Assembly: GCF_964059055.1 (NCBI RefSeq)
Contig: NZ_OZ060387.1
Location: 1-6,037, forward strand
Origin: Buchnera aphidicola (Neophyllaphis podocarpi)
Lineage (GTDB): Bacteria; Pseudomonadota; Gammaproteobacteria; Enterobacterales; Enterobacteriaceae
Direction of reading: 5' to 3'
Length of the DNA stretch: 6,037 nucleotides
This document shows positions 1,732 through 6,037 of this stretch, one piece after another (the first letter of the stretch is position 1; each line of letters begins with the position of its first letter). Both the position numbers and the translations under genes were made by a program. Below the pieces are notes generated by a model. That model had not been told where the DNA came from. It saw only the letters and a list, made by a program, of their open reading frames with translations, and searched no databases.

Positions 1732-2806
1732 AATATCTGTTCTTCCCGGCGACGGAATAGGACCAGAAGTTATGTTTGAAGCAAAAAAGATATTAAAATT
1801 AATTTCAAAAAAATTTAATTTAAATATAAAAATTAAAGAATATGAAGTTGGAGGAAAATCTATTGAAAAATATGGTACTCCTTTGACTAAAAAAACAATA
1901 ATAGGTTGTGAAAAATCTGATGCAATACTTTTTGGTTCAGTAGGAGGACCAAAATGGGATTCATTGCCTATTGATAAAAGACCTGAAAGAGGTTCTCTTT
2001 TAAAATTAAGACAAAAGTTTAATTTATTTGCAAATTTACGCCCATCAATTTTATATCCTGAGTTAGTTGATTTTTGTCCTTTAAAAAGAAATATTTCTAA
2101 TCTGGGCTTTGATATTTTATGTGTAAGAGAATTAACTGGAGGAATTTATTTTGGAAAACCTAGAGGAACTAAATTTAATGAAAAAAAAGAGGAATATGCT
2201 TTTGATACTGAAATATATTTCGCTTCAGAAATACAAAGAATTGCAAATTTAGCATTTAAATTATCAACAAAAAGAAAAAAGAAATTGACATTAATCGATA
2301 AAGCTAATGTTTTAGAAAGTTCTATTTTATGGAGAAAAATTGTAAAAAAAACATCTAAAGATTATCCGGACGTAAAATTATCATATCTTTATATTGATAA
2401 TGCTGTTATGAAAATCATAAAAGAACCAAACAAATTTGATGTAATACTTACATCAAATTTGTTTGGAGATATAATTTCAGATGAATGCGCGGCAATAAGT
2501 GGATCAATAGGTATGCTTCCTTCCGCTAGTTTGAATGAAAAAAAATTTGGTTTATATGAACCTTCAGGAGGATCTGCTCCAGATATAGCTGGTAAAAATA
2601 TATCTAATCCTATATCACAAATATTATCTCTATCAATGTTATTTAGATATAGTTTAAATCTAACATATATATCAGATTTGATAAACAAATCTATAAAAAA
2701 TGCATTAAAACAAGGTTATAGAACCAAAGATATATCAGATGGAAGTAATTATGTAAGTACTCAAGAAATGGGAGATAAAATTTTGTTCGAGATTAATAAC
2801 AACTGA
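1715..2806 (+). CDS. leuB: 3-isopropylmalate dehydrogenase (LeuB)
   Basis: 363-aa ORF. The N-terminus [20 protein letters not shown] matches the LeuB N-terminus (E. coli [20 protein letters not shown], recalled). Family motifs [21 protein letters not shown] and GSAPDIAGK are present. An SD-like AAGG lies at 1702-1705, 9 nt before the ATG. The start overlaps the leuA 3' end by 17 nt. Confidence 0.97.
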
Positions 2807-4221
2807 TGGATTATAAAATGAAAAGAACTTTATATCAAAAAATATACGAGTCACACATAGTAAGAAAAAATAAAAATTTAAATAATGCATTAATATATAT
2901 AGATTTACATTTAATTCATGAAGTTACTTCTCCTCAAGCTTTTAATTCTATTAAAATTAAGAATAGAAGAGTAAGAAATCCAGAAAAAACCTTTGCTACA
3001 ATGGATCACAATGTTCCAACAGATAGTAGAAATATAAAAGATTCAGGTATAATGGCACAAAAACAAATGAATGAATTGATTGATAACTGTAAAAAATTTA
3101 ATATTAAATTATATGACTTAAAACATAAAAATCAAGGTATTGTTCATATCATAGGTCCTGAAAATGGAATGACGCTTCCAGGAATGACAATAGTTTGCGG
3201 TGACTCTCATACTTCTACTCATGGAGCATTTGGTTCTTTAGCTTTTGGTATAGGAACTTATGAAGTAGAACATGTTTTATCTACTCAAACTTTAAACCAA
3301 AAATACTATAAAAATATGAAAATTGAAATAACAGGAAATATTCCAAAAAATATTTCTGCAAAAGATATTGTCTTATATATAATAGGAAAAATGAGTTCTT
3401 CTGGATGTAATGGATATATTATAGAATTTTGCGGAGAAGTAGTTTCAAATTTAAGTATGGAAGGTAGAATGACTATTTGTAATATGTCTATCGAAATGGG
3501 AGCTAAATCAGGAATAATTGCCCCAGATGAAATAACATACAAATATTTAAAAAATAGAAAATATTCACCTAAAGGAGAAAATTGGGAAAAAAGTTTGAAA
3601 TATTGGAATAATTTAAAATCAGATGAAAATGCTTTATTTGATAAAATAGTTCGATTTAATATAAGTAACATTGAACCTCAAATTACCTGGGGAACAAATC
3701 CAGGACAAGTAATTTCAATAAATGAAAAAATACCTGAAATAAGTGATTTTAAAGATCCAATAGAAAAAAAATCAGCAATAAAATCTTTAGAATATATGAA
3801 CATTAAACCAGGTCAGAGTCTTAAAAATTTATCAATTAATAAAGTTTTTATAGGATCTTGTACTAATGGAAGAATTGAAGATTTAAGAGATGCTGCAATT
3901 GTCGCAAAAGGTAATAAAATCGCTAAAAATGTAGAATGTTTAGTAGTTCCAGGATCTCAAAAAGTTAAGATTCAAGCTGAAAAAGAAGGATTAGATAAAA
4001 TATTTTTAGAAGCAGGTTTTGAATGGAGATTACCAGGTTGTTCTCTTTGTTTGGCAATGAATAAAGATATATTAAAACCAAAAGAAAGATGTGCTTCTAC
4101 CAGTAATAGAAATTTTGAAGGAAGACAAGGTAATAATAGCATGACTCATTTAGTTAGTCCGTCAATGGCTGCAGCGGCCGCAATAACAGGATATTTTATA
4201 GACTTTAGAGATATAATATAG
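2806..4221 (+). CDS. leuC: 3-isopropylmalate dehydratase large subunit (LeuC)
   Basis: Aconitase-family ORF with [21 protein letters not shown], the Fe-S ligand motifs GSCTNGR and [10 protein letters not shown], and [10 protein letters not shown]. The ORF-track start at 2806 forms a TGATG overlap with the leuB stop. Homology instead favours the ATG at 2818: [10 protein letters not shown] aligns with E. coli MAKTLYEKLF (recalled), and a GGA lies 7 nt upstream. The true start is 2806 or 2818. Confidence 0.96.
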
Positions 4222-4230
4222 AATAAAAAT

Positions 4231-4848
4231 ATGATAAAATTTACAGTGCATAAAGGTATTATATTACCTTTAGATATAAGTAATATAGATACTGATATTA
4301 TAATACCTAAACAATTTCTAAAAAAAATCACAAGAAGTAATTTTTCTAAAAATTTATTTCATAATTGGAGATTTATTGATGAAAAAGGTTTAAAACCTAA
4401 TCCTTCGTTTATTTTAAATAATAAACTTTATAAAAATGCAAGTATATTAGTTACTAGAGAAAATTTTGGTTGTGGTTCTTCAAGAGAACATGCTGTTTGG
4501 GCTTTGCAAGATTATGGATTTAGAGTAATAATTTCTTCAGGTTTTGCTGATATATTTTATAATAACAGTTTAAACAATAACCTTTTGCTCATTATATTAA
4601 AAGAAGATAAAATAAATGAGATAATGAATCTTATAAAAAATAATAAAATTAACTATGCAGAAATCAATTTAAAATATAATTATTTAAAAATCATAAATAA
4701 AAAATATTCATTTCATATCGACAAATATTTTAAACTAAAAATAATTAAAGGAATTGATGATATTGATATAACTATGAATGATTTTGAAAAAATATGTGCT
4801 TATGAAAGCAAGATACCAAATTTCTTACAAAGAAATTTTAGTCAATAA
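4231..4848 (+). CDS. leuD: 3-isopropylmalate dehydratase small subunit (LeuD)
   Basis: 205-aa ORF with DTDIIIPKQFL, RENFGCGSSREHAVWAL and GFADIFYNNS (aconitase swivel domain). It is collinear with E. coli LeuD (~201 aa, recalled) and starts 9 nt after the leuC stop. Confidence 0.95.
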   Translation: MIKFTVHKGIILPLDISNIDTDIIIPKQFLKKITRSNFSKNLFHNWRFIDEKGLKPNPSFILNNKLYKNASILVTRENFGCGSSREHAVWALQDYGFRVIISSGFADIFYNNSLNNNLLLIILKEDKINEIMNLIKNNKINYAEINLKYNYLKIINKKYSFHIDKYFKLKIIKGIDDIDITMNDFEKICAYESKIPNFLQRNFSQ

Positions 4849-4916: not shown

Positions 4917-4952
4917 TTTAGTTATTTATTTTTGAAAAAATAAATAACTAAA
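4917..4952. repeat. 17-bp-stem inverted repeat downstream of leuD, a possible weak leu-operon terminator or part of the repA control region
   Basis: tttagttatttattttt (4917-4933) and aaaaataaataactaaa (4936-4952) are perfect reverse complements around a central GA. The repeat lies 69 nt after the leuD stop. Only one G:C pair is present and no U-tract follows on the + strand, so it is not a canonical intrinsic terminator. Confidence 0.6.
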
Positions 4953-4957
4953 TATAA

Positions 4958-4992
4958 ACCAACTGATATTGAATTCATAATAATTAGTTGGT
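4958..4992. other. G/C-containing hairpin 27 nt upstream of the repA start, a candidate repA leader or antisense-control structure
   Basis: accaact (4958-4964) pairs with agttggt (4986-4992). The stem extends through G4965·T4985, A4966:T4984 and T4967:A4983, leaving a 15-nt loop attgaattcataata. The stem holds 3 G:C pairs in a spacer that otherwise has almost no G/C. The functional call is speculative. Confidence 0.35.
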
Positions 4993-5018: not shown

Positions 5019-5864
5019 ATGAAAAGAAAAAGATATATATATAATCCTAATCCTATTTTTGTTAAACCATTAAATCAAAAAAAAAGACCAGCTTTCATAA
5101 GATATGCAATGAAATGTGCAAAAGATATAGATGTAGCTAGAAGTGAAATTAATTATGTAATAAAACCTAAAAATCCAAGAACAGGAAACAAAATAGTAAG
5201 ATTTAGACGTCTTAATGAGCATAGAGCACGTGCAATGAGAGCAATTGTACAAGCAATGTTATATCACTATAATATTGCTTCTGAATTGGTTTTAGCATCA
5301 GTAGAACAATTGTCAGATGAATGTGGACTATCCACTGTTTCTTTAGCTGGAAATAAGTCTATTACAAGAGCTTCTCGTTTAATAACAGATTTTATGGAAC
5401 CCATGGGTTTTGTTGTTTGTGAAAAAATTTGGGATAATATAATAAAAACTTATATTCCTAAAATGATAACTATAACTCCATTGTTTTTTATGTTATTTGG
5501 TATATCTAAATTTAAATTAGATAATGCTAGAAGACAACATTTAGGTTGGATTAATAGTTGTTTAAAAGAGAAAGGTGAACCTTCTATAACTGTAATAGAA
5601 GCTAAAAGAATAGCAAAAGATATACATATAAAGAATGCTTTTAAACATAGAAAATCTATTTATATTTTTAATAAACAAAGAAATCAAGCAAAAAAGTTAA
5701 TAGAACTTGATGAAAAATCAGCAAAACAAAAAATATTACAAGATTTAGTAAAAAGGTATTCAATTGGTGAATTAGTTGATATGGGTGTTAATGGTTTAAA
5801 AAAACAGGTTAGTATGGAATACTTTAGGATAAAAAAGATAGCAGGTAATATATTTTTTAGATAG
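5019..5864 (+). CDS. repA: Plasmid replication initiator, IncFII/RepFIIA RepA family (the repA1 type of Buchnera leucine plasmids)
   Basis: 281-aa ORF. It is collinear with RepA1 of R1/R100 (~285 aa, recalled) through NPNPIF near the N-terminus (R1: NPNPVF), ECGLSTVSLAGNKSITRASR (R1: ECGLATESGAGKLSITRATR) and YIPKMITITPLFF (R1: YIPTDITFTLALF). The C-terminus is basic. There is no other ATG anywhere in the 170-nt upstream spacer. Confidence 0.9.
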   Translation: MKRKRYIYNPNPIFVKPLNQKKRPAFIRYAMKCAKDIDVARSEINYVIKPKNPRTGNKIVRFRRLNEHRARAMRAIVQAMLYHYNIASELVLASVEQLSDECGLSTVSLAGNKSITRASRLITDFMEPMGFVVCEKIWDNIIKTYIPKMITITPLFFMLFGISKFKLDNARRQHLGWINSCLKEKGEPSITVIEAKRIAKDIHIKNAFKHRKSIYIFNKQRNQAKKLIELDEKSAKQKILQDLVKRYSIGELVDMGVNGLKKQVSMEYFRIKKIAGNIFFR

Positions 5865-5932
5865 ATTATTTTTTAAATAAAAATATTATTTAAATGCGAT
5901 TTTTTTTTCGTATCTTTATCTTTTTCTAAAAT
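5865..5932. other. Candidate replication-origin/CIS region between the repA stop and the palindrome
   Basis: In IncFII replicons the origin lies shortly downstream of repA, and RepA acts in cis. This segment is almost pure A/T. It contains a T9 run (5900-5908) flanked by GCGA/CG and a tandem TATCTT TATCTT (5911-5922). The assignment is positional inference only. Confidence 0.3.
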
Positions 5933-6037
5933 TTGCATATATGTAAAAAATAAATTTAAAAAGAATAAAAATATATTATATTTTGAAAAAATTTCAAAAT
6001 ATAATATATTTTTATTCTTTTTAAATTTATTTTTTAC
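5933..6037. repeat. Perfect long palindrome. Left arm 5933-5988, loop AAA 5989-5991, right arm 5992-6037 continuing into window bases 1-10
   Basis: Checked base by base. The reverse complement of 5933-5988 (ttgcatatatgtaaaaaataaatttaaaaagaataaaaatatattatattttgaaa) equals 5992-6037 followed by 1-10 (…tttattttttac + atatatgcaa). Within the window alone, the arms 5943-5988 and 5992-6037 give 46/46 perfect pairs. The structure is certain; its function (terminator, origin or recombination element) is unknown. Confidence 0.97.

Follow-up and report, generated by a model that had tools for sequence, protein, structure and literature searches.

A 115-bp perfect palindrome overlapping the first origin repeat of the leucine plasmid of Buchnera from Neophyllaphis podocarpi

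Leucine synthesis for the aphid host is amplified by Buchnera plasmids, which replicate and are regulated in a genome with almost no regulators. The window analyzed in this work, a stretch of 6,037 nt [RefSeq: NZ_OZ060387.1], is the circular leucine plasmid (pLeu) of Buchnera from the aphid Neophyllaphis podocarpi. It encodes leuA (166-1731, with the ATG at 166), leuB (1715-2806), leuC (2806-4221), leuD (4231-4848) and repA (5019-5864), all of them located on the + strand according to the open reading frame map of the circularized window, which agrees with the circular, co-directional five-gene map proposed in the first-pass annotation. The RepA protein belongs to the IncFII RepA family (PF02387, E = 1.6e-133 in a profile search) and is identical to CAL4326051.1, annotated as RepA1 of a plasmid; the origin lies just downstream of this RepA1-type gene. 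Here we have analyzed a long perfect palindrome found in the intergenic region between repA and leuA, its relation to the plasmid origin and the way in which its arms have changed among related plasmids.

A base-by-base check on the circularized window showed that positions 5933-5988 are the exact reverse complement of 5992-6037 followed by 1-10. The palindrome therefore consists of two arms of 56 nt and a 3-nt AAA loop (5989-5991), 115 bp in total, with a G+C content of 8.7%. The outer end of the left arm (5933-5988), TTGCATATAT, duplicates origin repeat 1 in inverted orientation, and the right arm comprises 46 nt at 5992-6037 and runs on across the circular junction to its last 10 nt, ATATATGCAA (1-10), which are origin repeat 1 itself; a repeat finder applied to the linear window detects just the 46 nt of arm lying within it. 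The first pair beyond the arms (T at 5932 and G at 11) is mismatched. The palindrome starts 68 nt past the repA stop (5864), ends 155 nt ahead of the leuA ATG and is followed on the + strand by a U/T-rich tail, GTTATTATTTTA (11-22), which lies inside the conserved origin core too. The size, coordinates, distances and T-rich tail reported earlier were all confirmed in this way. A palindrome score of about 56 was reached in none of 200 dinucleotide shuffles of the spacer (shuffle mean 6), the DNA hairpin has a folding energy of -51 kcal/mol (z = -17.5), and for the RNA of this region the value is -83 kcal/mol (z = -14.9), with -62.9 kcal/mol for the RNA hairpin itself; the spacer shuffles and the fold z-scores rule out a chance origin. 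The Rfam 15 covariance scan gave no relevant hit at E <= 1 in the window, where the junction-spanning element is not seen whole.

The nearest record of the plasmid collection, NZ_CP135040.1 (6052 bp, 94% identical), is the pLeu of N. podocarpi Buchnera strain Neopo25, referred to below as the sister plasmid. It carries the same palindrome uninterrupted at 5908-6043, inside the record, which confirms both the circularity of the window and the junction sequence, and it was assembled in another laboratory with another pipeline (MEGAHIT/NOVOPlasty/Pilon). Its palindrome has 63 perfect pairs per arm, or 65 of 66 when the centre is counted. The start of the window inside the right arm reflects the submitter's rotation of the record to 4 nt before the first origin repeat, and the group's three sister records, those for Thelaxes, Eriosoma and Tetraneura, also open at this origin motif; the junction was rejected as an assembly break because the record start is such a deliberate rotation. 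In the Logan assemblies (k=31) of the sequence read archive (SRA) runs SRR29340286 and SRR29340287 the plasmid contigs are both 5976 nt long, end inside both arms and show a terminal inverted identity of exactly 30 nt (k-1), as is yielded by a true inverted repeat of at least 31 nt. In the contig index, exact matches were obtained with the RepA proteins of relatives and none with RepA or LeuD of the window, and a scan of genome contigs with RepA listed at least one additional locus.

That the palindrome is an assembly artefact, either a fold-back chimera or a repeat mis-resolved by short-read assemblers, seems to us extremely improbable. Every available assembly is a short-read one, de Bruijn contigs break at the palindrome, its central 59 nt lack Logan contig support, and some published pLeu records seem to hold collapsed palindromes at the circular junction. 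Nevertheless, two laboratories using different pipelines on lineages 6% apart obtained the same arms with different centres, and the flanks are unlike each other, each being homologous to conserved elements, which excludes a simple snap-back. The k-1 terminal inverted identity in two SRA runs fits a true inverted repeat, and long perfect palindromes are also present in Sanger-era pLeu records (A. pisum, Diuraphis and Schizaphis). Of the read check recommended for this region, the inverted repeat as such is supported by two short-read datasets, whereas its centre is left uncovered by their contigs.

Two further features of the palindrome were considered and rejected. Mirror-image promoter-like sites (TTGAAA-N16-TATATT) at 5983-6010 on the + strand and 5997-5970 on the - strand face outward from its centre; such sites are no commoner than in shuffled sequences and the -35 spacing is lost in the sister plasmid. 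A 76-codon open frame on the - strand, from 66 back across the junction to 5873, traverses the whole palindrome, and a fragment of it was also reported by the Logan gene caller; a coding role was dismissed since 11 nt of indels in the sister plasmid mean that the frame is not kept.

To place the palindrome, the DNA 3' of repA1 was compared in 17 Buchnera plasmids and a plasmid of Fukatsuia (RepA 65% identical), and the comparison was extended to 24 loci. The elements occur in a fixed order: repA stop, a small conserved hairpin, then the spacer, which in the window holds the palindrome, and finally the three ATGC repeats followed by an A-rich tract. In the window the small hairpin, ATGCGA-T9-TCGTAT with its T-rich tail, occupies 5894-5925 of the + strand (hairpin proper 5894-5913; -5.3 kcal/mol). 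The hairpin and its T-run lie about 30-50 nt past the repA stop, and their shape and position recur across pLeu plasmids and in Fukatsuia (TACGC...GCGTA), so that by sequence comparison this is the likelier family-wide 3' element of repA1. The repA1 terminator has been located near the origin by Vinuelas et al. (PMC3229713). The conserved origin core (1-90, + strand) contains ATGC at 5-8, 28-31 and 46-49 and the A-rich tract at 61-85, after which come ATAAACAT/ATAGACAT, the latter at 83-90. The core is 95% identical to that of the sister plasmid; repeat 1 is conserved in 22 of the 24 plasmids scanned, including a non-Buchnera relative, and the three ATGC repeats with the A-rich tract are likewise conserved in 22 of 24. 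A distant blastn search with the spacer independently found the DNA that directly follows repA1 in Diuraphis and numerous other pLeu plasmids. The small plasmid of Eriosoma grossulariae carries three tandem copies of the whole origin core, with starts at 5, 243 and 481 and a period of 238 nt.

The space from the small hairpin to the core is taken up by the palindrome, whose outer 10 nt coincide with the first of the conserved origin repeats; the suggestion that it is situated at or near the origin is thus borne out, and the exact limit of the conserved origin is marked by it. Immediately ahead of repeat 1, the Fukatsuia plasmid has a consensus DnaA box, TTATCCACA. No such box was found at up to one mismatch in the repA-leuA spacer of the window, and a box hidden within an arm was likewise excluded at this threshold; the DnaA-box position has been overwritten in the Neophyllaphis lineage. 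Plasmid R1, which replicates unidirectionally, also has its DnaA box immediately upstream of the DNA bound by RepA; it has been shown that RepA is able to act without DnaA and that loss of the DnaA box raises the copy number (PMC5883639).

At the position of the palindrome, about 30 other pLeu-type plasmids contain unrelated palindromes, tandem repeats, homopolymers or nothing. Unrelated palindromes were found in A. pisum (21/21 paired, ending 3 nt before repeat 1), Diuraphis (29/32, ending 5 nt before repeat 1), C. fornacula (26/27), Brevicoryne (28/28), Myzus (17/18) and Muscaphis (14). Nippolachnus has a T-run facing an A-run, and tandem repeats are present in Nippolachnus (10 nt x13), Kurisakia (19 nt x6) and Ceratoglyphina (42 nt x4). 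No significant spacer palindrome was detected in Mindarus, Cinara cedri, Pseudoregma, Thelaxes, Baizongia, Eriosoma or Tetraneura, nor in Aphis, Schizaphis, A. kondoi, Uroleucon, Sitobion, Hyadaphis or Fukatsuia, and even congeners disagree, with a palindrome in A. pisum and none in A. kondoi. The outer right arm is the sole part homologous to other plasmids; the inner arms match other spacers at chance level, and this includes a resemblance to the spacers of Mindarus and other lineages that had been suspected by eye. The palindrome is specific to Neophyllaphis, and none of the other short-lived palindromes that have arisen at this place is as large. In the comparison with orthologous plasmids proposed in the first-pass annotation, the same palindrome with a mirrored arm change is present in the 6%-diverged sister, and many other pLeu plasmids are without a palindrome there.

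These data bear directly on the idea that the palindrome is a functional part of the origin, in which an AT-rich palindrome would replace the lost DnaA box and would extrude as a cruciform or melt under supercoiling, aiding origin opening by RepA or loading of the helicase; in a variant of it, the palindrome would provide RepA with an inverted pair of repeat-1 sites. The palindrome sits at the DnaA-box position, includes repeat 1 and leaves no DnaA box in the spacer, and the palindromes of other lineages also end within 3-8 nt of repeat 1 (the value for C. fornacula was read from the sequence). Extrusion of a 115-bp palindrome from a 6-kb circle is predicted to be thermodynamically favoured beyond a superhelical density (sigma) of about -0.02 to -0.027, between the sister lineages the arms show no less conservation than the origin core, and the precedent of R1, with DnaA-independent initiation by RepA and a raised copy number after loss of the box, is compatible with such a replacement. 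On the other hand, the majority of pLeu plasmids and of related small plasmids have this core, lack a palindrome and still replicate, which means that the palindrome is not required for the origin. Close relatives disagree (A. pisum and A. kondoi), the palindrome sequences are unrelated between lineages, and cruciforms in Buchnera are predicted only. We therefore regard a functional role in the origin as rather unlikely.

The comparison with the sister plasmid revealed how the arms change. Identity between the two plasmids amounts to 93-95.5% in coding DNA, 82% in the leuD-repA spacer and 80% in the segment 5865-5932, and the two 56-nt arms differ by no substitution at all. Their sole difference is a lengthening of A6 to A7 in the left arm, mirrored by T6 to T7 in the right arm. 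The centre is AAA in the window and is larger by 9 nt, with one mismatch, in the sister. At the arm edge, position 5932 is T in the window and C in the two Neophyllaphis relatives, in which it pairs with G11, and this lineage-specific C to T change cuts the perfect arm from 59 to 56 nt; at the arm boundary of the sister, ATAAC pairs with the constrained GTTAT, lengthening the pairing. The differing outer boundaries indicate that the palindrome loses and gains pairs at its ends.

A second perfect palindrome of the window, located inside leuB (2426-2466; 41 nt, 19-nt arms, 3-nt loop), shows the same behaviour. All 19 pairs are formed in all three Neophyllaphis lineages, compared with 9-12 of 19 in 20 other Buchnera. 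The window has AAC...GTT where the sister has AAT...ATT, that is, a mirrored change of a C/G into a T/A pair by two synonymous substitutions; by simple counting, the probability that two substitutions fall on one mirrored pair with a complementary outcome is about 0.01-0.02. This palindrome is terminator-like in appearance on the - strand. The earlier proposal that perfect arms imply active maintenance is borne out by these mirrored changes between sister lineages.

A better-sampled analogue comes from the Aphidinae pLeu plasmids, all of which carry an 89-107-nt perfect palindrome between repA2 and leuA. Its outer 28 nt are conserved, and the inner part varies by genus yet stays self-complementary. 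The outer 37 pairs are 98.6% paired; 11 pairs have changed on both sides and none on one side only, with no G.U intermediates, which points to symmetry at the DNA level and not to selection on an RNA helix. In the records of Sitobion, Macrosiphum, Muscaphis and Hyadaphis the repA2-leuA palindrome has arms of only 22 nt, lacks a loop and spans the circular junction; it looks as if its inner part was lost on contig circularization.

The Neophyllaphis palindrome might be an ortholog of this Aphidinae element, an ancient feature upstream of leuA retained where the leuABCD order is kept, and we consider such common descent very unlikely. Both elements lie between a repA gene and leuA in plasmids of leuABCD order, both are perfect and both show a mirrored change. 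The arms share TAAAAAATAAATTT and AATAAAAAT; set against the conserved outer-arm sequence of Aphidinae, ATTTATACAATAAAAATTTCATAAGACA, two blocks of 14 and 9 nt are in common (shuffle p = 0.006-0.13 depending on the species). This similarity is not robust: it is marginal for a sequence of 91% A+T, fails multiple testing and is equalled by chance in other spacers, and the conserved core of the Aphidinae arm, TTTCATAAGACA, does not occur in the window. Moreover, the Aphidinae element lies about 45 nt before leuA and not beside the mapped origin core, whereas in the window the origin core separates the palindrome from leuA, and the neighbouring repA paralogues differ (RepA1 in the window, RepA2 in Aphidinae).

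The first-pass annotation had considered that the palindrome might act as a repA terminator and leuA insulator. Formulated as a selected transcription barrier, this reading has repA transcripts end at an RNA hairpin with a U-rich tail, which would keep transcription running round the circle away from the origin and leuA; in the case of read-through, RNase III might cleave the duplex RNA of 56 bp and so part the repA message from the leu message. IncFII plasmids require termination between repA and oriR, as in the CIS region of R1. In the window all genes are co-directional, the strong RNA hairpin described above is followed by GUUAUUAUUUU with 6 U in 8, and the family-wide small hairpin is weak. 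A position at or just past a repA stop, ahead of a co-directional leu gene, is common to the three largest pLeu palindromes (Neophyllaphis, Tuberolachnus and Aphidinae repA2-leuA). Yet the stem is 91% A+T and does not resemble a canonical intrinsic terminator, in which a short G+C-rich stem of about 5-14 bp with a small loop is expected and not 56 bp at 8.7% G+C, and a terminator scan of the intact palindrome of the sister plasmid called 0 sites. The tail is richer in T on the + strand (GTTATTATTTT, 6 T in 8) than on the - strand (ATTTTAGA, 4 in 8), but the + strand tail belongs to the conserved origin core, so that its conservation is otherwise explained.

Comparative support for the terminator and insulator role was not obtained. 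Many plasmids of the same co-directional repA-origin-leu layout, namely the repA-origin-leuB plasmids of Mindarus, C. cedri, Hormaphidinae and Thelaxes, manage without a long palindrome. No insulator is needed in those Aphidinae with a palindrome on the origin side, since repA1 and leuD there run towards the origin region from opposite directions. The absence of G.U pairs from the better-sampled Aphidinae analogue is also contrary to selection at the RNA level. The family-wide small hairpin with its T-run already lies 30-50 nt past repA, and the proposed role as a resolution site found no support either. A selected barrier thus appears possible but unlikely; a barrier effect arising as a side effect is plausible because the three largest pLeu palindromes sit at or after a repA stop, ahead of a leu gene.

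The reading that we favour, with a probability of roughly one half, is that the origin flank underwent an inverted duplication in Neophyllaphis only and that copying templated by the hairpin has kept the resulting palindrome perfect. The outer end of the right arm, comprising the first RepA-type origin repeat and the position of the relatives' DnaA box, would be ancestral, and the left arm would carry the inverted copy, created by template switching in the course of replication. The two arms would subsequently be kept identical at the DNA level by intramolecular template switching. Judging from R1, the spacer may be the place where a unidirectional IncFII-type fork completes its round against the origin, and this would explain the recurrent appearance of palindromes, tandem repeats and homopolymers there in different aphid lineages. 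pLeu plasmids neither conserve nor require the palindrome. As side effects it would probably form, at the DNA level, an easily melted or extruded AT-rich structure beside the initiator sites and, at the RNA level, a hairpin of -63 kcal/mol ending any repA read-through transcript. The sequences show where the palindrome lies, that it includes the origin repeat, its restriction to one lineage and the mirrored change of its arms; template switching, the connection with fork arrival and any consequence for replication or transcription are inferred.

Several points weigh against the inverted-duplication reading. The arms are free of substitutions while nearby non-coding DNA is 5-20% diverged, which hints at a sequence-level constraint and hence a function, because conversion alone does not slow divergence between lineages; this is a weak test, as with the indel counted as one event the Poisson probability of at most one event is about 0.2 at a local rate of 5% and about 0.02 at 10%. 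Just two to three Neophyllaphis lineages are available for comparison, and the mirrored changes could also come from compensatory selection on pairing. Both the direction of replication and the arrival of the fork at the spacer are borrowed by analogy from R1. Finally, the central ~59 nt (5960-6018) lie outside the Logan contigs and are backed by two finished assemblies only.

A bolder extension, which we find distinctly unlikely, would treat the left border of the IncFII-type origin of Buchnera plasmids as a "palindrome nursery", the 115-bp version having been co-opted as a DNA-opening or fork-arrest element in place of the DnaA box and of Tus/ter, presumably missing in the Neophyllaphis Buchnera, whose chromosomes are presumed to lack sbcCD and recA as well. 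Unidirectional forks would stall at the RepA-bound origin and would repeatedly create, enlarge and re-perfect AT-rich palindromes by self-templated synthesis, and the arms would be kept free of substitutions through selection among plasmid copies within cells.

Other features of the plasmid and of its relatives deserve mention. The leuD-repA spacer contains a hairpin with a 17-bp perfect AT stem (TTTAGTTATTTATTTTT / AAAAATAAATAACTAAA; 4917-4952) upstream of repA and a second one with a 7-bp stem, ACCAACT...AGTTGGT (4958-4992), just upstream of the gene; no Rfam match was found for these hairpins (4917-4992). In IncFII plasmids an antisense copy-control RNA occupies the position just upstream of repA. 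The co-directional order repA1-origin-leuA-leuB-leuC-leuD was seen only in Neophyllaphis among the pLeu-type plasmids compared; most other subfamilies have repA1-origin-leuBCD-leuA, and in Aphidinae leuABCD is convergent with repA1. A third Neophyllaphis pLeu lineage, about 1% from the window, is present in the Logan assembly of SRR29340286, a run that probably corresponds to the N. varicolor sample described in the same data paper. Two samples both labelled N. podocarpi have pLeu plasmids 6% apart, and this gap, together with the gap of about 1% to the SRR29340286 plasmid, suggests cryptic species or host misidentification.

Long perfect stem-loops in pLeu plasmids have already been published. 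Vinuelas et al. (2011, PMC3229713) described a "strikingly well-conserved" 97-nt stem-loop between repA2 and leuA of the A. pisum pLeu, and for the pLeu plasmids of Tuberolachnus salignus and C. cedri an inverted repeat at repA1 was reported by Manzano-Marin et al. (2016, PMC4898801); both reports bear out the mention, in the first-pass annotation, of long inverted repeats in pLeu intergenic regions. The window palindrome is a larger one at a different junction and represents no new class. What is added here is the overlap of the palindrome with origin repeat 1 at the DnaA-box position, together with the findings that palindromes arise repeatedly and briefly at the origin border and that their arms change in a mirrored fashion; the earliest pLeu literature may hold some of this. 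Considered together, the palindrome, its leuB counterpart and the Aphidinae stem-loop provide sequence-level evidence for concerted evolution of inverted repeats by a hairpin-templated process acting on DNA in recombination-poor genomes, and "conserved stem-loops" of symbionts are not automatically RNA regulators. The arm lengths bear on the maximum palindrome that a reduced genome tolerates. Short-read assemblers break or collapse at such palindromes, which affects assembly quality.

Among known systems, the closest counterpart of the locus as a whole is the IncFII/R1 oriR. Both share the initiator family PF02387 and have the origin just 3' of repA; a hairpin or terminator element separates the two, and repeated motifs and a tract rich in A+T are present. 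They differ in that R1 and the Fukatsuia relative have a DnaA box where the window has the right arm of the palindrome, and the described R1 origin includes no long palindrome.

The pLeu plasmids themselves offer two further parallels. The Aphidinae repA2-leuA stem-loop is likewise a perfect AT-rich palindrome of roughly 90-107 nt, located in the same plasmid family between a repA gene and leuA and showing a mirrored arm change; it lies beside repA2, about 45 nt from leuA, and is kept across the whole subfamily, whereas the window element follows a RepA1-type gene at 155 nt from leuA and is known only in Neophyllaphis. The palindrome of the Tuberolachnus salignus pLeu is similar in being perfect and long (96 bp) and in lying beside repA1, before the origin, in a plasmid whose genes are co-directional, but it ends 126 nt before origin repeat 1 and its sequence is unrelated. 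It is loopless (5202-5297), its left arm corresponding to the last 34 nt of the repA coding sequence and its right arm to an inverted copy downstream.

Intrinsic terminators, including the conserved leuD terminator of Aphidinae pLeu plasmids (A-run, TAGCGAA stem, T-run), resemble the window element in that a hairpin is followed by a U-rich tail, in the + direction only. The window stem of 56 bp at 9% G+C is not short and G+C-rich, and the consensus scan made no call; genuine pLeu terminators have a G+C core. As to the putative mechanism, quasipalindrome template switching, known from the Ripley model and from thyA and lacZ reporters of E. coli, is linked to replication: the nascent strand copies its own other arm, by which imperfect inverted repeats become perfect (PMC7202029). 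It predicts mirrored substitutions and indels such as those found here. The reporters concern short repeats of 10-20 nt and single events, whereas in Neophyllaphis Buchnera the process would have acted over evolutionary time on arms of 19-56 nt.

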